A stretch of DNA of 59,355 bases from Candidatus Altiarchaeota archaeon (GTDB lineage Archaea > Altiarchaeota > Altiarchaeia > IMC4 > SCGC-AAA252-I15): positions 1 through 59,355 of the forward strand of contig JBFYKH010000079.1 of assembly GCA_041306075.1 (NCBI GenBank), given 5' to 3'. Made by a program: the position numbers and the translations under genes. The notes beneath the pieces were generated by a model that saw only the letters and a program-made list of their open reading frames with translations, had not been told where the DNA came from and made no database searches. Of the stretch, positions 40,858 to 59,354 are shown in pieces (within the stretch, counting starts at the first letter, position 1; every line of letters begins with the position of its first letter).

Positions 40858-42138
40858 TTAGGCCTTCTTCTGCCATTTCAGAAGGTGCGTCACCTTCCCG
40901 AGCGAGCCGCCGCCACGTATCTCCGAGCGTATCCTGTTCTCGCGCTCCAGGACATCCTGCGCCCGGTTCGCGACTTCCACCGCCTTCTCCTTCGGCACGA
41001 CGACCACGCCGTCGCCGTCGCACACCACCCAGTCGCCGGGCCTCACAGCGACATCGCCCACCTGTATCGGCACGTTGATTTCGCCGAGGCCCCTCGGCTC
41101 CCCTGCAGCGGGAGTCCTAAGGCGCGAGTACACCGGGAATTTGAGCTTCCGTATCTCGTCGGAGTCGCGGACCGCGCCGTCGACGACGACGGCTGCCAGC
41201 CGCCTCTTCAGCGCGCTCTCGGTCGCGAGCTCACCCCACACGGCAGGGCCGACGCCGCCAGAAGTTATAACCAGCACATCACCGGGTTCGGCGGCGTCTA
41301 TCGCCTCCACCGGCTTAGCCCAGTCGCCGGGAAAAGTCCGGACCGTGACCGCCGGCCCGCACGCCCTGCAGCCCGGCGCTATGGGGGCCAGCCCCGCCAG
41401 GCCGCCGCCCCTGTGCATCGCGTCGGAGACGTTCGCGGCCGACACCCCGGAGAGTACGCCCCTGACGTCGACGCTGCGCTTGTACAGAGTAGACTTGACC
41501 CTCCGCCCGGAGTCCGCCGCCTTACGTATCGCCCCTGCCGCGGCCTTCGCGTCGGCGGCCTTGGTCACCGCCCCGCCGACGATGAGTATCCCGGCGCCCG
41601 CCTTGATGGCATCGACCACCGATTCCGAGTTCAGCCCCCCCGCGGCAGCCACCGGTATGCCGACCGCTCGGGCGACCGCCTCCAACTTCGCGAACGGAGT
41701 CTTCGACTCCATCTGCTCGTCGATGGCGGTGTGGACCGCCACATAGTCGGCGCCCAGCCTTTCCGCGAGCCTGGACCGGCCGACGACATCCTCGACCCCT
41801 ATGAGGTCGACCATTATCTTCGCCCCATAGTTCCTCCCGGCGTCCACGCACTCCCTGATGGTGGCCTCGGACGCAGCCGCGCAGACGTCCACGACGTCCG
41901 CCCCGGCCTTCGCCGCCGCCTCCACCTCCAGGCGGCCGGCGTCCATAATCTTCATGTCGGCGACGATGACCTTCCCGGGGAACCTCCGCTTAAGCTCCCG
42001 GACCGCGTCCAATCCCTCGGCCTTGATGAGCGGCGTCCCGGCCTCAATCCAGTCCACGCTCCCCGAGGCCTCCGAGGCCGCCTTCAACGCCCTGTCCAGG
42101 TCTACGAAATCCAGGGCAAGCTGCACCACAGGCTTCAT
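40858..42138 (-). CDS. hps: 3-hexulose-6-phosphate synthase fused to RraA-like domain
   Basis: QLALD, IEAGTPLIK.EG, ADMKIMDAG, H..ID.Q; C-terminal GDWAKPVEAID, WGELAT, DGAVRD; start reset to ATG 42138. Confidence 0.9.
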   Translation of the reverse strand: MKPVVQLALDFVDLDRALKAASEASGSVDWIEAGTPLIKAEGLDAVRELKRRFPGKVIVADMKIMDAGRLEVEAAAKAGADVVDVCAAASEATIRECVDAGRNYGAKIMVDLIGVEDVVGRSRLAERLGADYVAVHTAIDEQMESKTPFAKLEAVARAVGIPVAAAGGLNSESVVDAIKAGAGILIVGGAVTKAADAKAAAGAIRKAADSGRRVKSTLYKRSVDVRGVLSGVSAANVSDAMHRGGGLAGLAPIAPGCRACGPAVTVRTFPGDWAKPVEAIDAAEPGDVLVITSGGVGPAVWGELATESALKRRLAAVVVDGAVRDSDEIRKLKFPVYSRLRTPAAGEPRGLGEINVPIQVGDVAVRPGDWVVCDGDGVVVVPKEKAVEVANRAQDVLERENRIRSEIRGGGSLGKVTHLLKWQKKA

Positions 42139-42229
42139 GACAGTATATTCTGACGCAAAGACCGCATATAAACGCCCTGCAGAAGGAGCTGCCGGCCATT
42201 GCACATATTTAGGGAAATCCTGCCAGTTC

Positions 42230-43750
42230 ATGTATATGGCACACCGCGGGCCGGTCTTTAAGCCGCCTACCGACAGGGTCACATTGGACCCGGTCTTCCC
42301 CGGCTACCCGAAGCAGCTTGACTTCTCGGTGCTTCCGGACGTGGATGCACAGTGGGCGAAATCCCTCGGCCACAAACAGAGGCTGATGGAACCGTTCACC
42401 CTGCTGCGGGTCTACGGCGGACACTACGGGGAGGGCATAAAGCCCGACGGAAAGAGGATTGCCGGAGGCCTTGAAATCCACCTGAAAGTCCTCAGCGAAC
42501 TCATGGCCGCCGACTACCCGGCCAAGATACACGTCCTCTGCAGGGCGTTGAAGGCCGATGAACAGGAATACCGGGTGAAGAAGGAGGGCTGGCTCGGAGA
42601 GGTCGTCGTCCACCCCGTCTTCGGGTTCGGAGCGAGCCCGAGGAAGGACGCGGCGCTCGCCGGTAGGCTAATCGGCGAACACGACGTCGACCTGGTCCAC
42701 ATGCACAACCCCAGCGGCCAGGCCGGTCTCGCAGTCGCCCTCATGGCCGAGGCCCTGGACACCGGATTGTCGGTCACATACCACAGCGTCAAACGGAACA
42801 TCACGTGGAGCAACAGGGCCGGCAGGTACGCCAAGCGCGCGGCCGAAGTGTTCAGGGAACACTACGAGGCCAAGGGGGCGGCCGGCATCCCCGGTTTCCT
42901 GCTTGAGCTCGCCCAAAAGGGCCTTATGAAGGCGGTGAGGGGAAGGGGGGTCAACCTCAGAACATACGACGCCGCCCTCCGCGGACGCAAGTCCCCCTAC
43001 GCCTCCGCCTCCCTCTGCGCGATATCCGAGGAAGCGGGCGCGGAGTACGCGGGCAGGGACCAGCTGATAGTCGGCAACCCCCTTGACACAGAATTCTTCA
43101 GCCCCGAGAAGGCGGATGCCGGAAGATGCGCCGAAATCGCCGCCGAACACGGCCTAGCCGGGAAGAAGCTGGTGGTATACCACGCGAGAATCGAGCCCGA
43201 CAAAGGCCAGGCGGACCTCGTGGAAGTCGCAAAGCGCCTGCGCACGAGGTTCGGGGACGGCTTCAAGGTGGCGGTGATGGGAACGGTCGGGAACAGAAAA
43301 TACGCGGAGAGCATGTCTAAGAACGCCGAGGAGGCCGGAGTGGGGGACAACATCATAGTCCTTCCCGCCCAGAGCCAGGGAGACATACGCGACTGGCTGC
43401 ACATGGCCGACGCGATGGCATTCCCAACATACTACGAGGCCTTCGGCAGAAGCGGAGCCGAAGCGCTCTGCATGGAGACCCCGGTCGTAGCCTACGACGT
43501 CGGGGGCATACACGCTTACGTCCGGGACGGCAAGACCGGCCGACTAGTCAAAAAAGGCGACACGCTCGCCATGGCAGAGGCCTTGGAGGAAATCCTGAAA
43601 AACGAAGAACTTGCGGCGTCGATGGGCAGACGCGGGCGAAAGCTGATCGAGGAGGACTACTCTGCGTGCAGGGTCTGCGACAACTACATCAGATACGTGT
43701 ACTCGCCCCAGCTTGCGGCAAGAAAGGACAGAGGCAAAAGAAGACGCTGA
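42230..43750 (+). CDS. Glycosyltransferase family 4
   Basis: GGLEIH, ARIEPDKG, FPTYYEAFG...AEAL, PVVAYDVGG; start reset to ATG 42230. Confidence 0.88.
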   Translation: MYMAHRGPVFKPPTDRVTLDPVFPGYPKQLDFSVLPDVDAQWAKSLGHKQRLMEPFTLLRVYGGHYGEGIKPDGKRIAGGLEIHLKVLSELMAADYPAKIHVLCRALKADEQEYRVKKEGWLGEVVVHPVFGFGASPRKDAALAGRLIGEHDVDLVHMHNPSGQAGLAVALMAEALDTGLSVTYHSVKRNITWSNRAGRYAKRAAEVFREHYEAKGAAGIPGFLLELAQKGLMKAVRGRGVNLRTYDAALRGRKSPYASASLCAISEEAGAEYAGRDQLIVGNPLDTEFFSPEKADAGRCAEIAAEHGLAGKKLVVYHARIEPDKGQADLVEVAKRLRTRFGDGFKVAVMGTVGNRKYAESMSKNAEEAGVGDNIIVLPAQSQGDIRDWLHMADAMAFPTYYEAFGRSGAEALCMETPVVAYDVGGIHAYVRDGKTGRLVKKGDTLAMAEALEEILKNEELAASMGRRGRKLIEEDYSACRVCDNYIRYVYSPQLAARKDRGKRRR

Positions 43751-43832
43751 AGGCCTTTTCGCCTGGCAGACACGACCCGTAAGCCAGCGCCCGACGACGA
43801 TATTTATTTGGGTTAAGCCGAAATAGTGAGGG

Positions 43833-44504
43833 ATGGACGTGTGCGTCGTCATCCCCACGAGGAACGAGGAGGCGACGATAGGCCGTGTCATAGACTCCGT
43901 CCGGGGACTGGGTTACCGCGTCGTCGTCGTCGACAGCCTACATTCCCGGGACGGCACCCGTGAAGTAGCGGCCGGCCGGGGCGTGGAGGTCATCGTGGAC
44001 AGCGGCCGCGGCAAGGGCGACGCGCTCCGGGCGGCCATCGAGCGGGTGGACGCCGACATCCTTGTGTTCTTCGACGCCGACGGCTCCCACCTCCCCGGGG
44101 ACATCCCGTCGGTCGTGAAGCCGATACTCGAGGGGGAGGAGGATATGGTGGTGGCCTCGAGGATGCTCGGAGGCAGCCTGGAGTTCGATGGCACGATGAC
44201 GGAGGCGGCAAGGGCAGTCGCGTGTCTTGCGATAACCCTCATCATAAACTACCGTTGGGGCGTGAGGCTGACCGACACCCAGAACGGGTTCAGGGCTTTG
44301 AAGGCAGACGTGGCCAGGAAACTTCGCCTGGAATCAGACAGGTTCGACTTAGAGTCCGAGCTGACCATGAAATGCGTCAAGAGCGGCTATAGGGTGGGGG
44401 AGACCCCGAGCAGGGAGGTGCGGCGGGTAAAGGGGTCTTCGGGCATCAAATTAGCGTCCGAGGGGCCCGTGATTCTATGGAGGGTGCTCAAGAACCTGGT
44501 GTGA
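43833..44504 (+). CDS. Glycosyltransferase family 2 (Dol-P-Man synthase-like)
   Basis: VVIPTRNE, GKGDAL, FDADGSH, ASR, DTQNGFRA. Confidence 0.9.
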   Translation: MDVCVVIPTRNEEATIGRVIDSVRGLGYRVVVVDSLHSRDGTREVAAGRGVEVIVDSGRGKGDALRAAIERVDADILVFFDADGSHLPGDIPSVVKPILEGEEDMVVASRMLGGSLEFDGTMTEAARAVACLAITLIINYRWGVRLTDTQNGFRALKADVARKLRLESDRFDLESELTMKCVKSGYRVGETPSREVRRVKGSSGIKLASEGPVILWRVLKNLV

Positions 44505-44505
44505 C

Positions 44506-45876
44506 ATGAAGGTTCTTTTACTTAACCCACCGGCGCACGGGAGGGGTTACAGCAGGGAGGGGAGGTGCCAGAGCGAGGCTGACGCGTGGCTCACACCGTT
44601 CCCGCCGACGACATTCGCGAGCATAGGCGGCTCCGTGAGGGAACGACACGGGCTTAGGATGCTCGACTGCATCGGCTCGGGAATGACGCTCAAGGAGTGC
44701 CTGCGGGAGGCTGAAGCCTACGGGCCGGAGTACGTCGTAGCAAACACGTCCACGCCGACCATCCGCTCCGACTTGGACGCCCTAAAGGCCGTGAAGGAGG
44801 CCACCGGCGCCAGGACGATAATCTACGGCGAATACGCTACCGTGTTCCACGAGGAGATACTGGGGGGACACCCATGCGTCGACTACGTGGTCCGCTCGGA
44901 GCCCGAAACGCCGGTGATGAGAATCCTCGACGGCGAACCTAGGTCGCAAGGGGTTTCGATGAGGGGGTGGGACGGAGGCCTCTGGAACGAGCCGGACCTG
45001 GACAGGCTCCCGTTCCCCGCGTACGACCTCCTGCCAGAGTACAGGTTCCCGCTGACCGGCGAGCGCTGGATGTTCGTCCGCTCAGGGAGGGGCTGCCCCC
45101 ACCGCTGCATCTACTGCGTTATGCCATACCTCGGTGGGAGGCCCCGCTTCCATTCCGCACAGTACATGGTCGGGCAGCTGAAATGGCTGTCCAGAAGCCT
45201 GGGGATAAGTGTTTGGATGCTCTGGGACGAGCTCGCCACGCTGGACGCACAGAGGATGAGGAGCCTGTGCGACGGCCTGGTCTCGCATGGCCTGAGCCTG
45301 GACTGCAGGTGGTACTGCACGACCCGGGTGGACAGGTTCAACCCTGACCTCGCAGCCAGGATGCACGAGGCCGGCTGCAGGATGGTCTCGTTCGGCATAG
45401 AGTCGGGAAGCCAGGCCGTGCTGGACAAAACCGGGAAGGGCATATCCCTAAGCCAGTCCAAATCCGCTGTCGAGGCTGCGAGGAAGGCGGGATTGAGGAC
45501 TATCGGGCACTTTATAATCGGGCTGCCGGGCGAGACGGAGGAGACCGCCAGGAAGACTGTGGAGTTCGCGAAGACGCTCGGGCTGACCTTCGCGCAGTTC
45601 TACACGGCAACGCCGTTCCCGGCAAGCGAATTCTACGGGATGGCCTTGAGGAACGGATGGTTCAAGGGCGACTGGGACAGTGTGCATCAGGGCGGCGCGG
45701 CCCTTTCCTATCCCGGCTTCCCGGCCGAACGCATCATGCACTGGCGCCGGAGAGCCTACCGCGAGTTCTACCTGCGGCCCCGGCCGCTGATTGAAGCCGC
45801 CGGGATGCTGTCCTGGAGGGGGGCGTTCAGCCTGCCGTTCAACGCCCTGAAGTTCATTGCCTGGGCTAGCAGGTGA
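44506..45876 (+). CDS. B12-binding domain radical SAM protein
   Basis: N-terminal cobalamin-binding-like domain; RGCPHRCIYC; FGIESGSQ; FIIGLPGET. Confidence 0.9.
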   Translation: MKVLLLNPPAHGRGYSREGRCQSEADAWLTPFPPTTFASIGGSVRERHGLRMLDCIGSGMTLKECLREAEAYGPEYVVANTSTPTIRSDLDALKAVKEATGARTIIYGEYATVFHEEILGGHPCVDYVVRSEPETPVMRILDGEPRSQGVSMRGWDGGLWNEPDLDRLPFPAYDLLPEYRFPLTGERWMFVRSGRGCPHRCIYCVMPYLGGRPRFHSAQYMVGQLKWLSRSLGISVWMLWDELATLDAQRMRSLCDGLVSHGLSLDCRWYCTTRVDRFNPDLAARMHEAGCRMVSFGIESGSQAVLDKTGKGISLSQSKSAVEAARKAGLRTIGHFIIGLPGETEETARKTVEFAKTLGLTFAQFYTATPFPASEFYGMALRNGWFKGDWDSVHQGGAALSYPGFPAERIMHWRRRAYREFYLRPRPLIEAAGMLSWRGAFSLPFNALKFIAWASR

Positions 45877-45888
45877 ATTCCCGCATAG

Positions 45889-47532
45889 TCATACGCCCCG
45901 CCGGTAGACCGTCAAGACAGTCTCTTCTCCCGCCGATATGTCGTAGACCTCGGAGTAGCCGTGGATGGCTTCAGGGCCGGACGTGCAGCTGGACAGCAGG
46001 TAATCCGGAGTGATTTTAGGCGGCGCATACGATACGGCCCGTATCCGTTTACCCTCCTGAGGCGGCAGCAACCCCATGTTCTCCCCCAGCAGGTATCCGT
46101 CGCCCGGACAATATGCGGATACTGCCAGGTCTGCACCCGGGTCGCTGCGCAGGATGTAGCCAAGACCCTCATAGTAGAATGCTCCCTGTGGTCCGAGGCC
46201 GAAGCCCCGGACCGGCGTCGCCGAGGGGGTTAGGATGGTGAAGTACAGTTCCTCGTGCGGATGGTTCGCCAGTATGTATCCTGCCACGGACATGAATGTA
46301 AGCAAGACGGCGGCTAGGAGGACAATATTAAGGGCCCTGCCAGCCGCGGGATGACGCAAAGAGCCGAAGAGACGCGTTAGCCCCACTAGGCCGCCGGTTG
46401 ATATCGCTACAAATGCGGGGTATATGAAGAAGTGATGCCTCCAGCCACCCCAAAGCGGCGTTCCAGTAAGGACTACCGCGACTAACGGGAGAATAAGCCA
46501 GATGACGAAGAAGACCTCGTTTCTCCTGTCAGGCCCGAAATACCAAGGCCGTTCCATGACCGATTTCAGGATAAAAGCCAAGCCGGCGAGGAACAGGAGC
46601 GTGTACAGGGGGGGTATGGTAGCCAGCATCCATACCGGAGTGTAGTGCCATGGGACGTCGTTAGGGGCAATGGAGTCTCCGAGATATGTTGTTGATAAAG
46701 GCGTAAAGAGGGGCTTGACAGCGTACGTGAACGAGCCCAGTAAATTCCCCAGGGGGTCATCCCACAAGTAAGGCCATAGTAGGACCGTGAATAAGGCGTA
46801 ACAGGCGGCGAACGCGATAAGAGGGTAAAGTACCTCACGGACGCCTCCCCCCCGGGTCCTCCGTCTGGCGAGCTCGACCGCGGCGAATAGCACGGTCAAA
46901 GCGGGCACGAGGACTCCGAAGTTCCTGACGTCGGTCAAGAGGGCGCATGCGAGACCATGCTGGATTGCATGTGACACCCGGAAGTCATCGAGAAAGCGCA
47001 TCATCGTGTATGCGCTCACTGTGAACAGCGCGAGGCATGAGATGTCGACCGAGTTGTAGAACGAGCCGGCGAAGACCCTGGGGCTCAAGACGAGCATGAG
47101 ACATCCTGAAAGGCCCGCCGCCCACCCGCCGTACTGCCGCCTGCAGAGGAGGTAGAAGGCAACCACCCCGCAGTAAAAGAGGAGGAACGTCAGCACATGG
47201 GATATCCTAGCCAAGCCCCCGTCATCCGCAACACCCAGGACCCGCCCGACCGCCACAGCCAAGACCTCGAAGACCGGGCCGTGAATCCTCGCATGCTCGC
47301 TATCCAGAACCAGCCCGGACAACCTGCCTTCGAAGACGTGTTCGTACGCTGCCCTCCCATATTCGGTGTTTCTCTCCTGGTCCCAATGTGTCCCATATGC
47401 ATCAAGCACCAGGAACCCAGCCAACAGGTAGGCCGCAAACAGTAAGACGACCGAGGATTCGCCGGAAAAAGAGGCTTTGACCCTGTTGACCGACGCCCTT
47501 AAGAGTTGAATCGATTGCATGTTGAAGCGCAT
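45889..47532 (-). CDS. Polytopic GT-C glycosyltransferase (ArnT/PMT-like)
   Basis: ~11 TM; WDQ..., HGPVFE, SPRVF..SFYN..D, PWHY.PVW, RH..FIYP. Confidence 0.7.
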   Translation of the reverse strand: MRFNMQSIQLLRASVNRVKASFSGESSVVLLFAAYLLAGFLVLDAYGTHWDQERNTEYGRAAYEHVFEGRLSGLVLDSEHARIHGPVFEVLAVAVGRVLGVADDGGLARISHVLTFLLFYCGVVAFYLLCRRQYGGWAAGLSGCLMLVLSPRVFAGSFYNSVDISCLALFTVSAYTMMRFLDDFRVSHAIQHGLACALLTDVRNFGVLVPALTVLFAAVELARRRTRGGGVREVLYPLIAFAACYALFTVLLWPYLWDDPLGNLLGSFTYAVKPLFTPLSTTYLGDSIAPNDVPWHYTPVWMLATIPPLYTLLFLAGLAFILKSVMERPWYFGPDRRNEVFFVIWLILPLVAVVLTGTPLWGGWRHHFFIYPAFVAISTGGLVGLTRLFGSLRHPAAGRALNIVLLAAVLLTFMSVAGYILANHPHEELYFTILTPSATPVRGFGLGPQGAFYYEGLGYILRSDPGADLAVSAYCPGDGYLLGENMGLLPPQEGKRIRAVSYAPPKITPDYLLSSCTSGPEAIHGYSEVYDISAGEETVLTVYRRGV

Positions 47533-49739: not shown

Positions 49740-50852
49740 TTAGCCGAGCTGCTCCAGGACGTCCGTCTTCGCATGCCTGAGCTTCAGCCGCCTGCTCTGG
49801 CCAGGGCCGGGCAGCGGCTCCGACGCCACGAGGCCGGCGTTCTCCAGTTTCGCGACGATTTGGTTGTACTTTTTCACGCCCGTGCCGGCATACCCCTTCA
49901 GCTTCAGGTAGAGTTCTCCCGAGCGCACCCCGTCTTCCGATGCGATGAGGGACAGGAGCTTCCGCTCGACATCGTCGAGGGATGCTATCGCCTTCCTTAG
50001 CCCCACCTTCCGGGAGTCCCGCTCGTAAGCCTCCGTGACGTGCTCCCGGGTGATGCTGCGCGAGGCGTCCTTCTCAGCGAGGAGGGCGCTGCGCCTTATC
50101 AGGTCTATCCCGACCCTCATGTCGGCGGCCTCCACAGTCTTCTCGACGACATAGTCCAGGAGTTCGTCGGAGAGTACTCCGTCGTACAGGCCGTACCGCA
50201 CCCTGGTCGAAAGTATGTCCCTGGCCTCGGACAGGCTGTATGGCGGAAAGTCGACCTTGACGGGACTGTAGACGCTGGCCGTCTTCGGGTCCAGGTCCAG
50301 TAGGATGTTCTCGTCTATGAGTATCCCGACGACGCCGACCTTGTCGTACCCGTACGTGGTGTGGGCCTTCAGGAGGTCCAGGAGCAGCGAGTCTACTGTG
50401 TTGTTGAGGAACAGCTGGTCTATCTCGTCCAGCGCCACGACGAGGCTTCTGCCCTCCTTCTGGAGCTTCTTGAACACCTTCTCCTTGACTGCGTTCAGCG
50501 GCTTGCCAGTGTCCGGCGGCGAATGGCCTATCACGGCCTCGTGTATCCGCGAGAATATGCTGAAGCGTGTGTTGTAGTCGTCGCAGTTGACGTATACCGC
50601 GGCGAGCTTCCCGGACGTCTTCGCCGCCTCGTTGAATATGTACTTGACTGCCGTCGTCTTCCCGGTGCCCGGGGGCCCGTGGACGAGCGTGTTGACCGGG
50701 TTGACGCCCCTGAGCCCCGGCTTCAGGGACAGTGTTATCTCCCTTATCTGGTCGTCCCTGTGGGCGAAGTCCTCGGGAACGTATGAGGGGGTGAAGACCT
50801 CCTCGTCCCTGAAGAGCGTCTCCTCGGCGAGCAGTATGTCCCTGGGCTTCAT
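49740..50852 (-). CDS. cdc6: Cdc6/Orc1 family protein (paralog 2)
   Basis: VFTPSYVPEDF.HRD.Q, GPPGTGKTT, ALDEID, DMRVGIDL; winged helix. Confidence 0.9.
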   Translation of the reverse strand: MKPRDILLAEETLFRDEEVFTPSYVPEDFAHRDDQIREITLSLKPGLRGVNPVNTLVHGPPGTGKTTAVKYIFNEAAKTSGKLAAVYVNCDDYNTRFSIFSRIHEAVIGHSPPDTGKPLNAVKEKVFKKLQKEGRSLVVALDEIDQLFLNNTVDSLLLDLLKAHTTYGYDKVGVVGILIDENILLDLDPKTASVYSPVKVDFPPYSLSEARDILSTRVRYGLYDGVLSDELLDYVVEKTVEAADMRVGIDLIRRSALLAEKDASRSITREHVTEAYERDSRKVGLRKAIASLDDVERKLLSLIASEDGVRSGELYLKLKGYAGTGVKKYNQIVAKLENAGLVASEPLPGPGQSRRLKLRHAKTDVLEQLG

Positions 50853-50897
50853 CTTCAAGTATATGTCCGCTTAAAGAAATAAGCGGGGTATGGGAGG

Positions 50898-51238: not shown

Positions 51239-51475
51239 ATGAATATACGACGGATTCTCGCATTATTGGCCGCTACAGCGCTCGCTGACACCGCCTCCGG
51301 ATACATAGACCCAGGCACCGGAGGGATGATAGTCGGGGGGATGGGAGGAGCGATTTACGCACTTTTGGCAGGCGCCTTCGCAGTGGCTGCGGGAGTGGCC
51401 TACAGGTTCTATGGCAGCATAAAGGCAGGAGTTGGGGCTTTATGGTCAAGGTTTTTTGGAAGGCGGCGGCAGTAG
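51239..51475 (+). CDS. Small signal-peptide/TM protein with YIDPG motif
   Basis: Signal peptide ending TASG, then YIDPGTGG, TM helix and basic tail; TATA-like TTATATA ~27 nt upstream. Confidence 0.7.
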   Translation: MNIRRILALLAATALADTASGYIDPGTGGMIVGGMGGAIYALLAGAFAVAAGVAYRFYGSIKAGVGALWSRFFGRRRQ

Positions 51476-52860
51476 CCGCCATATTAACGGCGCTGTTGTT
51501 CCTTGGCTGGCGCCAGGTGTCTTCAGAGGGATGCCCGGACTGCAACGTAATACTAATCTCCGTCGACGCCCTCCGCGCAGACCACCTCGGAGTCTACGGC
51601 TACGGGAGGGGCACGAGCCCGAACATCGACGCTTTCGCCAGGGAGTCGGTGGTGTTCGACAACGCCGTGACCCCGAGGCCGAAGACGAATCCGAGCGTCG
51701 CCTCGATGCTGAGCGGCATCTACCCGTACCGTCACGGCGTCAGGGAACACAGCGTCCCAATAGCGGACAAGACGCCCCTGCTCCAGGAGTGGCTAAGGGA
51801 CGGCGGATGGCACACCGCCGCGTTCGTGAGCAACTGGGTGCTTCAGCCGGGCCTCGGGGGATTCCAGAGAGGCTTCGACGTCTACGACTACGACTTCACG
51901 AGGCAGGAGATGAACAGGAGGGATGTAGGGGAGAGGGACGCGGCCGAGACGAATGATGCAGTGTATAAATGGCTTGACGGCCGCAGCGTGGGGAAATTCT
52001 TCCTGTGGATACACTACATCGACCCCCACGGGCCCTATTACCCCCCAGAAGGCTACCGCGGACTCTACACCCACGCAGAGCCATCGTGGGTCAAAGTCGG
52101 CATGCTGCCGCCGTACCAGATTCTCCCGGATGCACCAAGAAGCGGCGACGCCACCGACGCCGCATACTACATCGACCAGTACGACGGCGAAGTCAGGTAC
52201 GTCGACCACGAGTTCGGCCGGCTGATTGCGAGCCTCCGTGAACGCGGCCTCCTCGAGAAGACGCTCGTCATCCTGACGAGCGACCACGGGGAGGGCCTCG
52301 GCGAACACGCCTACTACTTCGAGCACGGAGGGGAGGTGTACGAGGACAACTCGAAGGTCCCCTTGATAGTCCGCTACCCGGACGGAAGAGTAGCTGGAAC
52401 GCGGGTCCGCGAGCTCGTCTCCCTCATGGACGTCCCCCCGACTGTAACGGCCTATCTCGGTCTCGGCTGGCGGGGGGCCGCCTCGCCCGACGGGAGAGAC
52501 TGGGCGCCCGCGCTGTATGGGGCGGCGGTTCACGACGACGTGTTCATCGAGAGGAAGGAGGGCCCCGTCTTCCAGAGGGCGGCCGTGAGGACTAGGACGA
52601 TGAAATTCCTTGCCAAGGATTTATGTAATCCAGCGGACTCCGAAGGTGGCGCGTGCGAAGGCGCGAGGTACGAGTGCTACGACCTATCCCATGACCCTCT
52701 TGAGCTTGACTCAGAAGGCTGCGGCGCTGAAAAAGAAGCCCTAAGGAAGAGGCTGATGGAGCGCCTGGCCTCCGCGTGGAGGGATGGCTTGACGCTCCCT
52801 GTCGGGACCATGACGGAAAAAGACTCAGGCATACTTAAGTCGCTCGGTTATATGAATTAA
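51442..52860 (+). CDS. Membrane-anchored sulfatase-family protein
   Basis: NVILISVDALRADH, TPNID, KT.PS.ASMLSG, HY.DPH.PY, TSDHGE, VPLI. Confidence 0.88.
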   Translation: MVKVFWKAAAVAAILTALLFLGWRQVSSEGCPDCNVILISVDALRADHLGVYGYGRGTSPNIDAFARESVVFDNAVTPRPKTNPSVASMLSGIYPYRHGVREHSVPIADKTPLLQEWLRDGGWHTAAFVSNWVLQPGLGGFQRGFDVYDYDFTRQEMNRRDVGERDAAETNDAVYKWLDGRSVGKFFLWIHYIDPHGPYYPPEGYRGLYTHAEPSWVKVGMLPPYQILPDAPRSGDATDAAYYIDQYDGEVRYVDHEFGRLIASLRERGLLEKTLVILTSDHGEGLGEHAYYFEHGGEVYEDNSKVPLIVRYPDGRVAGTRVRELVSLMDVPPTVTAYLGLGWRGAASPDGRDWAPALYGAAVHDDVFIERKEGPVFQRAAVRTRTMKFLAKDLCNPADSEGGACEGARYECYDLSHDPLELDSEGCGAEKEALRKRLMERLASAWRDGLTLPVGTMTEKDSGILKSLGYMN

Positions 52861-54777
52861 ATGAAAAACGTTAGTGTGATTGCGGCATTGGCCGCGCTGG
52901 CGGTGGCTGCATTGGCTTACGCGGCGTTATACCACGCAGGAGGAGGCGTTATGCCTGAGGCGAAGTACAGGAAGGTTCTGGTCATCGGGATAGACGGGAT
53001 GGACCCTAAGATTACCGGGAGGCTGATGGCCGAGGGGAGGCTGCCGAACTTCAAGCGCCTCTCCGAGTCAGGCGCCTACATGGCTTTGGACACGAGCACG
53101 CCCCCCCACAGCCCGGTAGCCTGGACTTCCATGGCAACCGGCTCCAACCCGGGCAGGCACAACATATTCGACTTCATCAGGAGGGACGAGAGGACCCGGA
53201 TGCCGGAGCTCTCGCTCGCGAAGACGAAGAGCGGCCTGGCGGGCACGAGCTACGAATCGTACGTGAAGGCGACGCCTTTCTGGAGGAGCGCCTCGGCCGC
53301 AGGCGTGAAGACCACCGTAATCCGCTGGCCGGTCACGTTCCCGCCCGAGGATGTTGAGGGGGACATGCTTTCTGGCCTCGGCGTCCCGGACATCAAAGGC
53401 TTCCTGTCAGGGTACACATACTACACGTCCGACAAGGACGCGAAGTCTGAGAAGTCCTCCAACAGGGTGGTGACACTAGACCTGACCGCAGGCTCGGCGG
53501 CGACCCATGTCTGGGGGCCGAAGACCGTGAAGTCCGGGGAGGTCGCGGACGTAACGGCGCCGATGAGGATAGATGCCGCCCCGGGGAAGGTCAAGCTGAC
53601 CGTCGACGGCCTCGAATACACGGTAGAGGATGGTAGGTGGAGCGGTTGGGTGCGGGCGAAGTTCAAGGTGAGCGCCTTCAAGACAGCCTACGGGACCTTC
53701 AAGGCCTACGTGTCTTCAGCCGAGCCCCTGAGGATGTACGTCACCGCGGTGCAGATCGACCCCGAGAACCCAGTGGTCTCGATTTCGAAGCCTGATGGTT
53801 ATTCCGCACAGCTGGCGCGGGAAATAGGCCTCTACTACACCCTCGGGATGCCTGAGGAGACCGACGGCTACGTGGACGGCAAACTCGACAAAAACGCGTT
53901 CATCGCCCAGATAGTGGACATCGAGGGGGAGCGGGACCGGATGTTCCGGCGGGAGCTTGACCTGTTCCTGGCCAGGGACGCCGGAATCCTCGCGTTCGTG
54001 TACGACTCGAGCGACAGGGTCCAGCACGTGACGTGGAACCAGAGCATGCTCGAAGGCGGGGAGCTAGTGCTGGACGACGCCATAGCCGGATACTATGAGG
54101 GCAAGGACAGGCTCATAGGGGAAGTCCTCCCGAGGCTAGACGATAGGACTCTCCTTCTGGTGGTGTCCGACCACGGCTTCACCTCATATGAGAAGGGCGT
54201 GAGCATGAACCGCTGGCTCGTCGAGAACGGCTATATGGCGCTGACAAGGGAGCCTCCGGAGGGACAGGACGGCGCGCTCTTCGAGTACGTGGACTGGACT
54301 AAGACCAAGGCCTATTCCCTCGGATTCAACAGCGTCTACGTGAACGCCAGGGGGAGGGAGGACGGGGGCATAGTGGAGGACAGGCAGGCGTTCGCCAGGG
54401 AGCTTCAAGGGAGGCTCGAAGCAATGACCGACCCCGCGAACGGCAGGAGGCCGGTCCACAGAGCCTACCTGAGGGAGGATATCTACAGCGGCCCCTACGT
54501 GAAGGACGCCCCCGACATAGTGGTCGGCTACAACCCCGGCTACAGGATGGCCTGGCAGACGGCCATCGGCGGCCTCACCCCGGAAGTCTTCGTGCCGAAC
54601 ACGAAGAAGTGGAGGGGCGACCACCTCGTCGACCCATCGTACGTCCCCGGCGTCCTATTCTCGAACGCGAGGCTCGGCAGCGGCTCCGCCTCGCAGACGG
54701 ACGTGGCCCCGACAATACTGGCGGCGGTAGGGGTCAGGAAGCCCGACGGGATGGACGGGAAAAGCCTGCTCGGCTGA
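52861..54777 (+). CDS. Alkaline phosphatase/nucleotide pyrophosphatase family protein
   Basis: VIGIDGMD, PPHSPVAWTSMATG.NPG.H.IFDF, SDHGF, GDH, DVAPTIL. Confidence 0.88.
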   Translation: MKNVSVIAALAALAVAALAYAALYHAGGGVMPEAKYRKVLVIGIDGMDPKITGRLMAEGRLPNFKRLSESGAYMALDTSTPPHSPVAWTSMATGSNPGRHNIFDFIRRDERTRMPELSLAKTKSGLAGTSYESYVKATPFWRSASAAGVKTTVIRWPVTFPPEDVEGDMLSGLGVPDIKGFLSGYTYYTSDKDAKSEKSSNRVVTLDLTAGSAATHVWGPKTVKSGEVADVTAPMRIDAAPGKVKLTVDGLEYTVEDGRWSGWVRAKFKVSAFKTAYGTFKAYVSSAEPLRMYVTAVQIDPENPVVSISKPDGYSAQLAREIGLYYTLGMPEETDGYVDGKLDKNAFIAQIVDIEGERDRMFRRELDLFLARDAGILAFVYDSSDRVQHVTWNQSMLEGGELVLDDAIAGYYEGKDRLIGEVLPRLDDRTLLLVVSDHGFTSYEKGVSMNRWLVENGYMALTREPPEGQDGALFEYVDWTKTKAYSLGFNSVYVNARGREDGGIVEDRQAFARELQGRLEAMTDPANGRRPVHRAYLREDIYSGPYVKDAPDIVVGYNPGYRMAWQTAIGGLTPEVFVPNTKKWRGDHLVDPSYVPGVLFSNARLGSGSASQTDVAPTILAAVGVRKPDGMDGKSLLG

Positions 54778-54798: not shown

Positions 54799-57700
54799 TT
54801 ATCTCGTGCACGGGCTTTCCTGGACCATGTGGGTGCCGTTCCAGTACATGCAGGCGTCGCAGGCCGAGCCGAAGCACATCACCTTGGTGTCGGGGACGAC
54901 GACGCGGGTCGCATTCACGACCAACGTCGCATTCTGGCCGAAACCGACCTGGAAACTATCGGTTGTCGGATTAACGAAGTCCCTGCCGAATGCGAAGACG
55001 TATTGTGTAGCGTTCGCCGTTGCTGTGCCGGCCTGGATGTTGTATCCTGCCGCCAAACTGTAGTTACCTGTGACATTGACGCGGTAGCCAGCCGCTGTCG
55101 AGCCACGTCCACTGACCATGTTGTTCGAGCCGCCGAGTACGACGGAGTTTTCATTGGTTATGGAGTTGTATGCGCCGCCTATGACGGCGGAGTTCGCCCG
55201 CTCCACTAGGTTGTGTTCACCGCCCAGGATTGCCGCTGATTGTCCGTTCACGGCGTTGTTTGCTCCGCCAAGAACAACCCCAAAGGTATTATCGACAACA
55301 TTCAATCCCATTACATTGCCGCCAAGGCATGCAGACTCTTGGCCGCTGGCTATGCAACTGCCTGCGGCGAATGCCCTGCTATTCGTGGCTTGAGACCCGC
55401 CGATAGCCACTGAGCCGAGCGAGTCATTATATACGAAGTTTTCGCTTGTCATGTATCCGCCGAACACTACGTCCCCCGAGTCTACTATGAGGGCTGAGGG
55501 CGAGCCGTATAGTACCAAGCGCGTGCCCGTGACGGTCAGGTTCCCTGTCACGTTCACATTGCCTTTGTTGATGCTGATGTTGCTTGATATGCTGCCGCTC
55601 TCGTTAACCCAGTAAGGCCTCACTACACTCTCAACAGACGCTATCCTACTCTCCTGGACGCTCGCATTAGTCCACAGGGCTGAGACGTTGCCTTGGAGGG
55701 CGGTGATGTTGACGACGGCCGCCGAAACGTTCCCGCGCAGCCCGGTGACGTTGCTAACGACCTCGCTGACGTTGCCGCGCAACGCTGTCACGTTAACCAC
55801 GGTCGAACTCAAATTACCCCACAACTGAGTTATATTGTTCGCGTTGGCTGGGCCCGCACCCTCCAACGCGATGATGCGAGTGTCCTGGTTCGAAGCGTTA
55901 CTCCACAAACCAGTGACGTTACCCTGCAACGCAGAAACATTCACCACAGCCAAGGAAACGTTATCGCGCAATGCAGTAACATTAGTCACTGCCGAGCTGA
56001 GATTGCCCCACAACTGGGTGATGTTATTCGCGTTCGCCAAGCCGCCCACCAGGTTCAGGCAGTTGCCGGCCCCGTCGCAGACGATGCCGGTCGCGTTAAT
56101 GTCGCCGCCAGCGTATACGTCTTCTGTGACGTTCGCTGTGCCGTTGACGTGCAGCCGCTCTGAGGGCGTGTACGTGTTGATGCCTACGTAACCATCGGCT
56201 GATATCCTCATCCGCTCCGTCCTGTCGTTATAGGTATGTCCGAGGCCGGTGGTCTCGAACTGTATGTTCGTCCCCTGGTGAGTGGAGTTGAAGTCCTCCT
56301 CTGTTTGGAGGGTTATTAGCGCATTACTCATCGCCGAGAACGCAGTGCCATGATAGCCCCGCCCGGCCAACGCCAGGAGGTTCTCCCCCGCCGTCACAGC
56401 GGTCGGAGAGGTTGAAGTGCCCCTGGCCTTCCTGCCGACGATGCCGGACTGGTAGGCTTGGAGCGCCGGACTGTATGTGGTTGAGTATATGAGGCCGTCG
56501 CGGGCGTTAGCCTGCACCTCCAGGAAGCTCGCCGGATTAGACGTCCCCACACCCAGCCGGCCGGTGACTGTCAGGTTCCCGGTGACATTCACGTTCCCGC
56601 TGTCGATGCTGGCGTTGGTCGTTATCCTGCCGCCCTGGTCAAGCCAGAACGGGACATATCCCCCACCCCCGGGCTGGATGCAGTATCCCGTGCCGTCGCA
56701 GACCCGACCGGTGGCGTTCACGTCTCCGATGACCCTTACCAGGTTGTCGGTCACGTTCAACGTCGCGTCTCCGAAGCCGACCTGGAAGCTGTTGGCAGTA
56801 GGATTCGTGAAGTTCCGGCCAAACGCGAAACTGCTTGCTCCAGGGCCGGCTAGGATGTTTAAGCCCGCTGCCATCGCGTAGTTGCTTGTCACATTTGCCA
56901 TGTAGCCGAAGGCCTGGCTGTAGTTGCCGGGGGCCTGGTTATCGTAACCGATTATTACTGATGAGATTCCATCGACGCGGTGGGTATTGATGGTTGAGCC
57001 TAGGCCTGCGCCGAAAGAACCCTTCCCGTAAGCCTGAGTCCATTCACCAAACGCCTGGGAATAGTCCCCATAGGCCTTAGCCCCTTTACCTACAGCTAAT
57101 GACGCCTCGCCGCTGGCATAAGTGAGGTCTATCCCGTTTGCGAGACCTATGGCAGCCGCATAGTTACCGAATGCGACTGCGCCGGAACCGACTGCCAGCG
57201 AGCCGATTCCGCTGCTTCCGGGTGACCCCCATCTTGGGTCGCCGACTGCAAGGGAGTAGTTGCCGGAAGCCTGGCCGCCGCCAAAAGCGACTGCAGCATA
57301 CCCAGACGCCTCGCCGCCACCAAAAGCGAAGGTATTGCCGCCAGTCGCCGAGGAGCCAACCCCAACAATGTTTCCAGCGACTGTCAGGTTCCCTGTGACG
57401 TTCACGTTGCCTTTGTTAATGGAGGCGTTCGAGCTGATGCTGCCGCTCTGGTTTATCCAGTAGGGCCTGTTGGCGGCTTCGAGGCCGATTATCCGGGCGT
57501 CCTGGTTGGATGCGTTCGTCCAGAGGCCGGTGACGTTGCCCTGTAGGGCAGTGATGTTCACAATCGCCGAGGAGACATTGCCACGCAACCCGGTGATGTT
57601 GTTGACAACCTCGCTGACGTTGCCGCGCAACGCCGTCACGTTCACCACGGTCGAACTCACATTACCCCACAACTGGGTGATGTTATTCGCGTTCGCCAAG

Positions 57701-58776
57701 CCGCCCACCAGGTTCAGGCAGTTGCCAGCGCCATCGCAGACGACGCCCGTCGCATTCACGTCTCCGACGACTCGGACTAGGTTGTCGGTCACATTAAGGG
57801 TTATGTCGCCGAAGCCGACGGCGAAACTGTTCGCTGTCGGGTTCGTGAGGTCGCGGCCGAATGCCTGTGAGTTTAGTCCTTGTGCGAGTATGTTGGCACC
57901 TATCGCTATCGAGTAGTTTCCTGTGGCGTTGGCGAGGTATCCCAATGCGACGCTGCTGTAGGCCGTGGAGAATGCCGAGTATCCTATGGCGACCGAGGAT
58001 GTATTGCCGGCGTATGTGCTGATTCCGAGGGCTAGGGCGTAGGGACCTGCCGCCGTACCACCTTGGGCTGCGAGGGACAGCGTTCCTAGGGCGTCTCCGT
58101 TGCCGAGGGCCGTGGCGGCGTATCCGGTGGCGTTGGCGTTGTCGCCGACGCTGAAGCTGGCGTTAGTGTGGTCCCAGACTAGGAGCCTGGTCGTCGGGAG
58201 ATAGCCCATCCCAGTGGATGTGAGGCCGGATACCGCGTAGGAGTTGCCGCTGAGTCTGCAGGTTATAGAGCTCTTCGTCGTAGCCTGAGCGCACTCCTGC
58301 CGGGTGAATGATAGGACGCCAGCGCATCCCTGGTTGACCTGGCCAATGGACGACGCTGTTGGACAGACATAGACTCCCGCACCATCAGTCACTGGCAAGA
58401 GTAGGGTGTGCGTTGCCGAGACATCTATGACCCCCCCGAAGCTGAAGAATATTTGGCTGCCAGTGTAGTTCAATGCCACAGGGGTTAGGTCAGGCGAACC
58501 GGTTATGGTGAACCCGACTAGCCTCGTCGAGCCTGACGCCCCCTTAAAGTAGTATGTTTCAGCCGGGTCCACCGACGCATCGGAGGTGAGTTGGTTGTCG
58601 GAGGAGTCGTATAAGCCTATGCCGTTCGGAAGGGAGGTGAATGTGACGGTTTGCCCTGCTGAGGCGGATACGTTAGGAGACGCTGCCAGGAGGACTAGGG
58701 CCAACGCTATGCTGAGCCGGGCCTGGAGGCCCGGGGACGCCTTACCCGCCGTTTTCCCGACTAACATTTCACGCAT
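54799..58776 (-). CDS. Large secreted trimeric-fibre/adhesin-like protein (YadA-head-like repeats, coiled-coil stalks)
   Basis: Signal peptide; 14-aa AxG repeats (ALALG...SVAIG...SVALG...SIAIG); three heptad stalks; GVGTxxP motifs; internal repeats. Confidence 0.75.
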   Translation of the reverse strand: MREMLVGKTAGKASPGLQARLSIALALVLLAASPNVSASAGQTVTFTSLPNGIGLYDSSDNQLTSDASVDPAETYYFKGASGSTRLVGFTITGSPDLTPVALNYTGSQIFFSFGGVIDVSATHTLLLPVTDGAGVYVCPTASSIGQVNQGCAGVLSFTRQECAQATTKSSITCRLSGNSYAVSGLTSTGMGYLPTTRLLVWDHTNASFSVGDNANATGYAATALGNGDALGTLSLAAQGGTAAGPYALALGISTYAGNTSSVAIGYSAFSTAYSSVALGYLANATGNYSIAIGANILAQGLNSQAFGRDLTNPTANSFAVGFGDITLNVTDNLVRVVGDVNATGVVCDGAGNCLNLVGGLANANNITQLWGNVSSTVVNVTALRGNVSEVVNNITGLRGNVSSAIVNITALQGNVTGLWTNASNQDARIIGLEAANRPYWINQSGSISSNASINKGNVNVTGNLTVAGNIVGVGSSATGGNTFAFGGGEASGYAAVAFGGGQASGNYSLAVGDPRWGSPGSSGIGSLAVGSGAVAFGNYAAAIGLANGIDLTYASGEASLAVGKGAKAYGDYSQAFGEWTQAYGKGSFGAGLGSTINTHRVDGISSVIIGYDNQAPGNYSQAFGYMANVTSNYAMAAGLNILAGPGASSFAFGRNFTNPTANSFQVGFGDATLNVTDNLVRVIGDVNATGRVCDGTGYCIQPGGGGYVPFWLDQGGRITTNASIDSGNVNVTGNLTVTGRLGVGTSNPASFLEVQANARDGLIYSTTYSPALQAYQSGIVGRKARGTSTSPTAVTAGENLLALAGRGYHGTAFSAMSNALITLQTEEDFNSTHQGTNIQFETTGLGHTYNDRTERMRISADGYVGINTYTPSERLHVNGTANVTEDVYAGGDINATGIVCDGAGNCLNLVGGLANANNITQLWGNLSSAVTNVTALRDNVSLAVVNVSALQGNVTGLWSNASNQDTRIIALEGAGPANANNITQLWGNLSSTVVNVTALRGNVSEVVSNVTGLRGNVSAAVVNITALQGNVSALWTNASVQESRIASVESVVRPYWVNESGSISSNISINKGNVNVTGNLTVTGTRLVLYGSPSALIVDSGDVVFGGYMTSENFVYNDSLGSVAIGGSQATNSRAFAAGSCIASGQESACLGGNVMGLNVVDNTFGVVLGGANNAVNGQSAAILGGEHNLVERANSAVIGGAYNSITNENSVVLGGSNNMVSGRGSTAAGYRVNVTGNYSLAAGYNIQAGTATANATQYVFAFGRDFVNPTTDSFQVGFGQNATLVVNATRVVVPDTKVMCFGSACDACMYWNGTHMVQESPCTR
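56006..57726. repeat. 62-bp identical direct repeat within the fibre gene
   Basis: 56006-56067 identical to 57665-57726 (encodes GNCLNLVGGLANANNITQLWG). Confidence 0.9.
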
Positions 58777-59123
58777 CTTATTTTATGCATTGAAGCTTAA
58801 GGCTTGTATCTCGCCACCTCCTGGCCGTTGACGTACATCGACAGCCAGCCGGCCGTCGAGTTGAACATCATGTATGAGTCGCCGGAGGGGCCTTCGAACC
58901 CTACCTTCGAGTCCTGCCGGACTGTTGCGTCTCCGCCTGACACGTCCAAGCGTCCGGTCACGTTCACGTTTCCGCTTCGGATGCTGACGTTGCTTGCGAT
59001 TGCGCTGCCGTCGTCGACCCAGTAGGGTCTGTTGGCGGCTTCGAGGCCGATTATCCTGGCGTCCTGGTTCGATGCGTTAGTCCACAGGCCGGTGACGTTG
59101 TCTTGGAGGGCGGTTATGTTCAC
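57457..59123. repeat. ~105-bp near-identical module shared by the two fibre genes
   Basis: ~57457-57561 vs ~59019-59123, both encoding NITALQxNVTGLWTNASNQDARIIGLEAANRPYW. Confidence 0.85.
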
Positions 59124-59354
59124 AACAGCTGCCGAGACATTACCCTGGAGGGCTGTGATATTCACGACCATCGAGGAGACGTTGCTGCGCAAAGCAGTCA
59201 TATTAATGACCGTCGAGCTCACGTTGCCCCAAAGCTGGGTGATATTATTGCCCGAGGACGGCGAACCATAGACCTCCAGGGAGGTAATGCGCTGGTCGAC
59301 ATTGCTCGCATTAATCCACAAGTTAGTTATGTGCAGCTGCTGATTCGACGCATT
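58797..59354 (-). CDS. 3' part of a second fibre-like paralog (5' end outside window)
   Basis: Frame open to the window edge (NASNQQLHITNLWINAS...); same heptad stalk and YW...GNVNVTG module as 54799-58776. Confidence 0.75.
   Translation of the reverse strand, partial: NASNQQLHITNLWINASNVDQRITSLEVYGSPSSGNNITQLWGNVSSTVINMTALRSNVSSMVVNITALQGNVSAAVVNITALQDNVTGLWTNASNQDARIIGLEAANRPYWVDDGSAIASNVSIRSGNVNVTGRLDVSGGDATVRQDSKVGFEGPSGDSYMMFNSTAGWLSMYVNGQEVARYKP

Follow-up and report, generated by a model that had tools for sequence, protein, structure and literature searches.

The window analysed here is the whole 59355-base contig JBFYKH010000079.1, which ends in two adjacent minus-strand genes for large fibre proteins whose stalks open nearly every heptad with an N-glycosylation sequon (N-x-S/T). 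Fibre gene 1 (54799-58776) is an open reading frame (ORF) of 1325 residues, recognised through Pfam YadA_head and through sequence matches to structures in the PDB. Fibre gene 2 runs from 58797 to the window end at 59355, where the contig end cuts the gene and leaves only the C-terminal 185 residues. The gap of 20 bp between them suggests that the two genes are co-transcribed. Our best explanation, which we hold to be somewhat better than an even bet, is that the products of both are surface fibres, secreted and probably homotrimeric, of an archaeon related to Altiarchaeota, and that many of the stalk asparagines are N-glycosylated after export.

The translated fibre protein 1 holds 62 sequons, 2.7 times the number expected from shuffling its residues (23.0 +/- 4.2, maximum 38). 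The in-phase sequons form three runs, at residues 365-421 (nine sequons), 918-960 (seven) and 981-1037 (nine), and the partial product of fibre gene 2 adds a run of nine at its residues 37-93 as well as a piece of an earlier stalk. An earlier first-pass annotation, made by a model from the letters alone, had counted 34 in-phase sequons (9 + 7 + 9 + 9) and had quoted one stalk string; the tally was reproduced, and translation of 57508-57684 on the minus strand gave the string exactly. In 5000 shuffles the longest in-phase run was 4, compared with the 9 observed, and among all periods from 3 to 15 runs longer than 2 were found only at 7 (run of 9) and at its multiple 14 (run of 5). A chance origin of the periodicity is thus excluded. 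The hydrophobic residues follow the same period of 7, as had also been claimed, with V or I at position 2 and L, A, V or T at position 5. In stalks 2 and 3 a single heptad phase is kept across a 7-residue linker and is continuous over residues 918-1058.

Recent expansion of repeated DNA was considered as a source of this periodicity and rejected. Tandem Repeats Finder (TRF) reported no 21- or 42-bp array in the stalk DNA; neighbouring heptads share 40-49% DNA identity, and the DNA of the stalk blocks is mutually 74-77% identical. The lack of an array and the low identity of adjacent heptads indicate that the periodicity is held at the protein level. Sequon density in the fibre proteins reaches 4.7-7.6 per 100 residues, compared with 0-0.6 in 17 other proteins of the window (a 10- to 30-fold difference), and their Asn content is 9.6-11.9% as against 1.3-4.7% in the other window proteins, on a contig of 62% G+C.

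Modules of the fibre proteins

The first-pass annotation had not recognised the proposed fibre among described archaeal appendages. Its architecture is recognisable by Pfam and the PDB sequence search, which identify YadA-like heads, necks and stalks. Pfam YadA_head (PF05658) scored 37.4 bits against a cut-off of 25, in four stretches of fibre protein 1, and the PDB search matched the heads of UspA1, EibD, YadA, AtaA and BpaA in three separate regions, together with gp26 (in the stalks) and Bdellovibrio fibres (residues 776-887). From its N-terminus, the protein runs through a signal peptide, an N-terminal domain, head 1, a neck, stalk 1, head 2 and a second neck, and then through a domain resembling mosaic adhesive trimer (MAT) fibres, a third neck, stalk 2, a hinge, stalk 3, head 3 and a Cys-rich tail. 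All module coordinates below are on the minus strand.

Judging from its sequence and hydrophobicity, the N-terminus resembles a Sec signal, in agreement with the earlier claim of a signal peptide. The predicted Sec-type peptide (about residues 1-40; 58657-58776) has the hydrophobic core LSIALALVLLAA, followed by SAS/AGQ, and includes the most hydrophobic 19-residue stretch of the protein; a hydrophobicity scan found no C-terminal transmembrane segment. The N-terminal domain (residues 41-199; 58180-58656) is common to the N-terminus of homologue P0004 and has no Pfam match. Head 1 (about residues 200-315; 57832-58179) consists of YadA-like repeats, with the best YadA_head stretch at residues 271-295 and matches to YadA (1p9h, residues 248-325) and AtaA (3wp8, residues 200-411). 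Neck 1 (residues 316-364; 57685-57831), FAVGFGDITLNVTDNLVRVVGDVNATGVVCDGAGNCL, carries a C-x5-C pair and is near-invariant across fibre protein 1 of the window (p1) and its homologues P0002, P0003 and P0004; such pairs stand in p1 at Cys 347/353, 693/699 and 900/906. Stalk 1 (residues 365-436; 57469-57684), delimited by an AlphaFold2 helix and the gp26 heptad alignment, comprises nine sequon heptads and then the cap NASNQDA RIIGLEA. It leads into a post-stalk element, PYW...GNVNVTGNLTV (residues 437-470; 57367-57468), which is kept after every stalk or neck and whose counterpart after stalk 3 is predicted by AlphaFold2 to be a beta-hairpin.

Head 2 (about residues 471-661; 56794-57366) is again made of YadA-like repeats (EibD 2xqh, residues 553-695; BpaA 3s6l, residues 445-629). 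Neck 2 (residues 662-705; 56662-56793) passes, in module alignment A3, straight into a PFW element without a stalk. The following domain (residues 776-887; 56116-56451) resembles the C-terminal part of Bdellovibrio MAT fibres, with matches to 8ol4 (Bd2439, E = 4e-10) and 8oml/8on4 (Bd1334), all of which are MAT fibre structures (PMC10769870). A third neck copy, found by recurrence of the neck motif (56026-56115), precedes stalk 2 (residues 918-971; 55864-56025), which has seven sequon heptads and a cap. The hinge GAGPA (residues 972-976; 55849-55863) breaks the AlphaFold2 helix with the heptad phase kept across it, and is followed by stalk 3 (residues 977-1051; 55624-55848), with nine sequon heptads and a cap. 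Head 3 (about residues 1091-1270; 54967-55506) is built of UspA1-like repeats (3pr7, residues 1151-1252, E = 3.7e-8), and the C-terminal tail (residues 1271-1325; 54802-54966) holds cysteines 1301, 1306, 1309 and 1323 and gives no YadA_anchor match. In fibre gene 2, the sequon run places a stalk of nine sequon heptads and a cap at ~59031-59246, and the heptad phase reveals part of an earlier stalk at 59271-59354.

In the module alignment the neck consensus, FAVGFGDITLNVTDNLVxVxGDVNATGxVCDGAGNCL, is nearly invariant, and downstream of it comes either PYW...GNVNVTG directly or a stalk inserted between the two, which makes the stalk an optional cassette. The core motif GDVNATGxVCDGAGNCL, present in three copies in p1, hardly varies among homologues whose identity elsewhere is 35-70%, and Pfam has no model of it; to our knowledge, this Cys-loop neck is unlike any neck of the trimeric autotransporter adhesins (TAAs). 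In p1 Pfam detected neither the YadA_anchor (PF03895), at E up to 1, nor the Peptidase_S74 chaperone domain (PF13884). The protein thus has no beta-barrel anchor. Pfam gave nothing usable on the N-terminal domain, the MAT-like domain or the C-terminal domains of homologues P0004 and P0031, and PHROGs returned only weak matches of coiled-coil type.

Stalk register and the question of glycosylation

AlphaFold2, run on a single chain, predicted one unbroken helix over residues 363-436, with 10-residue block means of pLDDT (predicted local distance difference test) of up to 80, and two further helices over residues 907-971 and 977-1051, with GAGPA between them and a beta-hairpin after. The blocks are thus predicted to be alpha-helical and, from their heptads and the gp26 alignment, to be of coiled-coil type, as the rod proposed in the first-pass annotation implied. 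In a model of head 1 with stalk 1, the head stayed below a pLDDT of 50, and the head fold is thus assigned from sequence.

A different fold was considered because the stalks also show a 14-residue super-repeat, NITxLxG NVSxxVV, with Gly every 14 residues beside Asn, and because the repeats of YadA-type heads are likewise 14 residues long: the blocks might then be no coiled coil and form a beta-roll or beta-helix like the YadA head. We find this barely credible. AlphaFold2 predicts uninterrupted helices in all three blocks, no head match with reported coordinates lies within a stalk alone (the sole one to enter a stalk is the extended match to AtaA, residues 200-411, which reaches into stalk 1), and the weak Pfam matches inside the blocks are to coiled-coil families only. 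The blocks, moreover, align with a part of gp26 that is helical by crystallography and has Gly at f as well.

To define the register we tabulated 159 heptads from the window proteins and the homologues P0002 and P0003. Position 1 is N in 124 of them and otherwise R, H, Q, D, S or L; position 2 is I, V, L or A; position 3 is S or T; position 5 is L in 95 and Q in 35; and position 6 is often W. The residue right after Asn is always V or I and never T, and S/T stands at +2, not at +1. The hydrophobic moment points almost straight at position 2 (7-8 degrees off), with positions 5 and 6 beside it; the Asn is 110-111 degrees away. HMMER aligned p1 residues 365-422 (residues 28-85 of the stalk-only query) with residues 99-147 of phage P22 gp26 (2poh) in a local match (E = 2e-4) over the stretch RVTTAEG EIASLQT NVSALDG RVTTAEN NISALQA, pairing gp26 residues 104, 111, 118, 125, 132 and 139 with the stalk Asn; in the PDB sequence search, p1 residues 933-1085 also match the engineered fibre 4lin.

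Two registers have been published for gp26, one assigning 133-ISALQAD to abcdefg (PMC4786415) and the other assigning N63xxQ66D67 to N@a, Q@d and D@e (PMC13580157). By sequence count N63 precedes I133 by 70 residues, that is, by exactly ten heptads, so that the two registers agree and the aligned gp26 residues all fall at g. The gp26 coil holds both kinds of motif, a true N@d in I91-T-A-N94-T and Asn at g in N118-V-S and N132-I-S, and it is the latter with which the stalk aligns. In the block cap A-S-N-Q-D, the Q and D correspond to Q@d and D@e of the NxxQD layer. We conclude from these alignments that the heptad reads N(g)-V/I(a)-S/T(b)-x(c)-L(d)-x(e)-x(f), with Asn flanking the core and not buried as in N@d.

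This bears directly on the possibility, raised in the first-pass annotation as one that would overturn its proposal, that the Asn lies at d in an ion-binding core, where it would coordinate anions, be buried and be unable to bear glycans. Such cores exist: N@d layers coordinate anions, about 45% of the d positions in TAA stalks are polar, and Hartmann et al. reportedly described in 2009 TAA stalks with long runs of N@d heptads, often [I/V]xxNTxx. The window stalks share with them an Asn every 7 residues with L three positions before it, formally like [I/V]xxN, and they are accompanied by TAA-type heads. The evidence is nonetheless contrary, and we regard a buried Asn as very unlikely: V/I always follows the Asn where T would be expected, with S/T only at +2; the in-register alignment pairs the stalk with gp26 N118 and N132 at g, not with N94 at d; the hydrophobic moment is centred on position 2, 110 degrees from the Asn; and in the cap ASNQD the residues follow the x@a, Q@d, D@e pattern of NxxQD. 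Acceptance of R, H, Q, D and S at position 1 within the family, and of D in the bacterial TAA P0041, excludes a core location for that position.

With Asn at g, the stalk would adopt the gp26/TAA kind of coiled coil, left-handed and built on heptads that read N(g)-V/I(a)-S/T(b)-x(c)-L(d)-x(e)-G/V(f), in which V/I and L form the core, the Asn lies on the core flank adjoining e' of the neighbouring helix, and each block ends in a polar layer, A(a)-Q(d)-D(e), followed by RIIxLE. The fibres, trimeric by homology, would be assembled from the module types of TAAs, phage tail fibres and Bdellovibrio MAT fibres, namely YadA-like beta-roll heads, Cys-loop necks and coiled-coil stalks, without a beta-barrel anchor. 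Glycosylation of many stalk sites after export would place up to three glycans on each ~1 nm of rod and would turn the rod into a sugar-coated spacer, modular in length, by which the heads are kept off the cell, consistent with an adhesin or spacer function. AglB, which is conserved widely among archaea, transfers glycans to N-x-S/T of exported proteins (PMC6098224), and an export signal, predicted from hydrophobicity, and N-x-S/T acceptor sites are both present here. Because the protein is exported in an archaeon, and because g is almost always Asn followed by S/T, we consider glycosylation of many stalk sites the most likely reading.

The glycan stripe is a hypothesis with a serious structural rival, which we judge less probable yet well within reach. 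According to this rival the coiled coil is the same, and the sequon is merely part of a heptad, [N/D]-V-[S/T]-x-L-x-G, that was inherited; packing between helices or hydrogen bonds would account for the retention of Asn at g and S/T at b, and few or no stalk sites would be glycosylated. When 1.84 billion representative proteins were searched exhaustively with a profile, 223 matches at E <= 1e-3 were obtained, many with this type of heptad, and 801 heptads from 65 non-family proteins served for comparison. Several results weigh against glycosylation and for the rival. In the comparison set position 1 is N in 382 heptads and D in 419, and S/T at +2 follows D (80%) as often as N (71%), so that N and S/T may each be kept for structure; as the profile favoured S/T at this position, these background S/T figures are probably too high, which counts against the rival. 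DVTTLQG alternates with NVTTLQG in P0041, a bacterial TAA with a YadA_anchor. The phage tail protein P0052, whose gene neighbours one for a tape measure, shows an unbroken series of 37 Asn heptads of the related form N-[VIL]-x-x-L-x-S, with a variable third position, and P0060 and P0081 have runs of 16-20 Asn heptads, none with S/T at +2. The unglycosylated gp26 carries N-V-S and N-I-S at g-a-b, and bacterial TAAs are themselves sequon-enriched, 1.65-1.9 times over expectation compared with 2.4-3.0 times here. On the side of the window, no WWDxG motif of AglB occurs in any frame of the 59 kb and no STT3 Pfam match among the window ORFs scanned; the g position is only partly exposed in trimers; and the AlphaFold2 confidence is low to moderate (mean pLDDT 44 and 65).

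From these sequence comparisons, periodic Asn and S/T at b appear as traits of a wider class of bacterial and phage coiled coils, and a sequon per heptad can thus arise without glycosylation. The view that such a pattern is unique, or is in itself a sign of glycosylation, was consequently not borne out, P0041 having the same heptad and P0052 a related one. Two lines of evidence were down-weighted: overall sequon enrichment, since it extends to TAAs with beta-barrel anchors, and S/T at +2, since it is equally frequent after D in related heptads.

What speaks against a mere by-product is the near-exclusive use of Asn in the archaeal family, where N and D stand at 124:2 compared with 382:419 in other proteins with the same heptad type. 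S/T occupies +2 in 121 of the 124 N-heptads and in 5 of the 35 non-N heptads, an association whose Fisher value of 7e-24 is overstated, as heptads are not independent; N and S/T covary inside P0003 as well, in which S/T is missing from most non-N heptads. When paralogous blocks are compared, position 1 shows 0 amino-acid and 12 synonymous changes, and position 3 shows 2 amino-acid changes, both S/T swaps, and 18 synonymous ones, with both Ser codon families in use; both positions have fewer amino-acid changes than core position a. In these codon comparisons the strongest purifying selection falls on N and S/T. Finally, Trp at -2 is specific to the family, occurring in 20.3% of its 860 sequons (9.7-fold enriched) compared with 1.2% in the other matches, and the protein is exported in an archaeon, in which N-x-S/T serves as the acceptor of AglB.

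In the coiled-coil frame this Trp takes position e, adjoining the g Asn of the neighbouring helix. The W-x-N-x-S/T pattern corresponds to the so-called enhanced aromatic sequon.

Host, fibre island and wider family

Consistent with the earlier claim of an archaeal host, the window encodes Cdc6/Orc1, RtcB, an archaeal-type Glu/Gln-tRNA synthetase, a type II dehydroquinate synthase and FEN1 (Pfam). Its RtcB is 74-81% identical to those of Candidatus Altiarchaeota metagenome-assembled genomes (MAGs) and at most 59% identical to others among the best 80 loci. Marker genes and RtcB identity together identify the host, as far as gene content and identity can tell, as an Altiarchaeota-related archaeon. 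Two membranes have been reported for Ca. Altiarchaeum, which may not hold for this host.

The fibre genes lie beside cdc6/orc1 (49740-50858, minus strand), a conserved boundary recognised from Pfam and from synteny with the Altiarchaeota MAG contig JAZDMS010000043.1. That contig carries family member P0043 in the order HisG - RNase HII - EF-1beta - L10e - DUF4443 - [fibre] - Cdc6 - DUF4139 - RibD_C ... FEN1 ... RtcB, in agreement with the window. In the same slot of the JGI contig that carries P0003 stand five consecutive large genes, two with YadA_head matches and two with stalk-profile matches (P0003 itself and a 734-residue gene taken as P0031), followed by a phosphodiesterase and sulfatase pair. 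Thus, in three related contigs the fibre slot is found between L10e/EF-1beta/DUF4443 and cdc6/DUF4139/RibD_C, flanked on either side by housekeeping genes, and holds one fibre gene in the MAG (L088 1-21749), at least two plus the enzyme pair in the window, and, in the JGI contig, five large genes that are probably fibre genes, together with the same pair. On this gene-order evidence the fibre genes form a chromosomal variable island beside cdc6/orc1, which looks like a hypervariable surface-protein island and is possibly near a replication origin.

The same synteny bears on whether the genes belong to an archaeal virus, integrated or degraded, and encode its tail fibres or spikes and not a cellular appendage. 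The stalk does resemble a phage needle, and one domain is like the phage-like MAT fibres. In addition, three homologues, P0034, P0030 and P0096 (L083 2015-3796, L084 3756-6974 and L089 1331-3790), all with a signal peptide, sequon-rich stalks and the shared cap motif, lie on short contigs with many small co-directional ORFs that gave no Pfam or PHROG matches, and L089 also encodes a 228-residue P-loop nucleoside triphosphatase with weak Zot-like similarity. These contigs may be archaeal viruses or plasmids with the same fibre modules. For the window genes, however, the conserved chromosomal slot between housekeeping genes in three related contigs, the absence of any viral hallmark gene nearby and PHROG matches that are weak only make a provirus origin unlikely.

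Between cdc6/orc1 and fibre gene 1 lie, on the plus strand, a sulfatase-family and a type I phosphodiesterase-family gene (51442-54777; Pfam), conserved fibre-gene neighbours whose products both have N-terminal hydrophobic segments. Sulfatases carry a C-x-P-S-R motif; by eye, the sulfatase-family protein has TNPSVASMLSG at this site. It may belong to the alkaline-phosphatase superfamily as a phosphotransferase or hydrolase with a Thr nucleophile, and could act on envelope glycans or lipids. Some 7-13 kb from the fibre genes is a cluster of glycosylation type (41858-47532), made up of a GT4 glycosyltransferase (41858-43750), a GT2 (43833-44504), a radical SAM protein (44506-45876) and a 547-residue membrane protein with a sub-threshold match to PMT_2, a GT-C fold (45889-47532). 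Farther away, a 904-residue ORF (32176-34890, plus strand) has no Pfam match above noise and a 16-bit fragment of a YgjP-like metallopeptidase near its C-terminus.

The distribution of the family rests on the exhaustive profile search. Family signatures, defined as the cap LWxNASxQDxRIxxLE, the neck CDGxGxC or PNIDxxNITxG modules, were found in about 33 of the 153 representatives checked; nearly all of these members have signal-like N-termini, and all show a sequon excess, of 1.45- to 4.2-fold. A neck-motif scan of 185,579 species-representative genomes found no relative, and the family is absent from them or diverged at the exact neck patterns. Word-indexed searches with stalk alignment A1 and neck alignment A3 gave 2 and 0 matches and were uninformative. 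Among the other matches, the PF03895 anchor is present in the bacterial proteins P0015 and P0020-22, and PF13884 (S74) in the distant matches P0006 and P0008-10.

The first-pass annotation had read the different block lengths as tuning of stalk length. Length variation itself is clear: blocks in the window proteins and P0002 hold 5, 7 or 9 sequons, numbers that fit the 14-residue super-repeat, some necks have no stalk, and P0002 and P0029, alleles from one 90% cluster, differ by 140 residues, or 20 heptads, of extra stalk blocks. That this variation tunes function is something we only infer. P0002 and P0029 (L001 10001-15862) carry a further sequon-laden repeat, QPNIDAANITSGTILNARYN..., which they have in common with P0030, P0034 and P0039 and which does not occur in the window proteins. 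P0030, P0035 and P0039 end in W-[LI]-x-F-P (WIRFP, WLFFP and WLTFP), which may be a sorting or anchoring signal; the end of the window protein differs.

A more far-reaching version of the glycosylation reading, which we put forward tentatively and think doubtful, would make the stalk a glycan-sheathed coiled coil. Every g Asn in all three helices would be N-glycosylated, and the first sugar would pack on the e' Trp or Phe of the neighbouring helix, which would account for the W-x-N-x-S/T signature of the family as an aromatic sequon acting in trans. With cassettes of such blocks, drawn from a hypervariable island next to cdc6/orc1, Altiarchaeota and possibly viruses of theirs would be able to build surface fibres whose length is adjustable, and the sugar coat would form part of the rod structure.

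If the sites are occupied, the fibre would be a protein rod with a strictly periodic coat of N-glycans, roughly three per nanometre, and a natural test case for how oligosaccharyltransferase handles closely spaced sites and how glycans stabilise coiled coils. Regardless of glycosylation, archaea of the Altiarchaeota lineage use the head-neck-stalk set of TAAs and phage fibres without a beta-barrel anchor, keep a variable multi-gene fibre island at a fixed chromosomal site and have relatives of these fibres on virus- or plasmid-like contigs. These observations bear on how uncultivated subsurface archaea attach to surfaces, partners or viruses.

Comparison with known systems

A full-text literature search found no description of an archaeal appendage with a stalk of periodic, one-per-heptad sequons. 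Among surface filaments of the same phylum are the hami of Candidatus Altiarchaeum hamiconexum, which bear threefold prickles and hooks and are probably glycosylated (PMC4460559). Their subunit is beta-rich, with S_layer_N, NosD and FKBP_C domains (PMC4975002), none of which Pfam detects in fibre protein 1, and the idea that the fibre is a hamus subunit was rejected.

Glycans on fibrous stalks have precedents elsewhere. The TAA-type adhesins Knh and EmaA bear many N-linked sugars, 32 sites on Knh and mostly at N-x-S/T, which are added by an HMW1C-type cytoplasmic N-glycosyltransferase and are needed for function (PMC4550697). There, mono- or dihexoses are attached in the cytoplasm at scattered sites, whereas here en bloc transfer by AglB after export would be expected, at strictly periodic sites. 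The triple-stranded coiled-coil stalk of the SARS-CoV-2 spike, with large N-glycans at N1158, N1173/4 and N1194 (PMC7302197), demonstrates by analogy only that coiled-coil surfaces can bear N-glycans; its sites number three per chain instead of one in each heptad, and its sequence is unrelated.

In the stalk itself the closest likeness is to P22 gp26 (2POH, 3C9I, 4LIN), whose NVSALDG and NISALQA are near-identical to NVTALRG and NITALQG of the window, with Gly at f, and whose polar layer of Q@d and D@e is similar to the ASNQD cap. The similarity is local: 2 of the 11 gp26 heptads have Asn at g, the protein lacks heads and necks and is unglycosylated, and of the gp26-type needle plan, with its portal-plug N-terminal domain and inverted coil/knob C-terminus, only the central coiled coil aligns. 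The N@d layers of TAAs also place an Asn once per heptad over many heptads of a trimeric fibre stalk, but in the window Asn is at g and not at d, V/I and not T follows it, and no central ion site is expected.

As whole proteins, the window fibres would function in the manner of TAA, phage or MAT fibres. The MAT fibres of Bdellovibrio bacteriovorus and phage tail fibres are likewise chimeric, modular and trimeric, with variable paralogues at one locus, and the structures of Bd2439 and Bd1334 are matched by residues 776-887; the window protein differs in having no detected S74 domain, an archaeal host and sequon-bearing stalks. The TAAs (type Vc; YadA, UspA1, EibD, AtaA and BpaA) share YadA-like heads above the Pfam cut-off, the repeated order of head, neck and stalk, and the stalk heptad [N/D]-V-[S/T]-x-L-x-G, as in P0041. 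The window fibres differ in their archaeal host, the Cys-loop neck CDGAGNC, an Asn fixed at g, the pairing of a signal peptide with a Cys-rich C-terminal tail and the lack of a beta-barrel anchor, and because this defining anchor is absent they are not TAAs. We thus regard them as a variant of a known fibre type, for which a stripe of glycans along the stalk is plausible.

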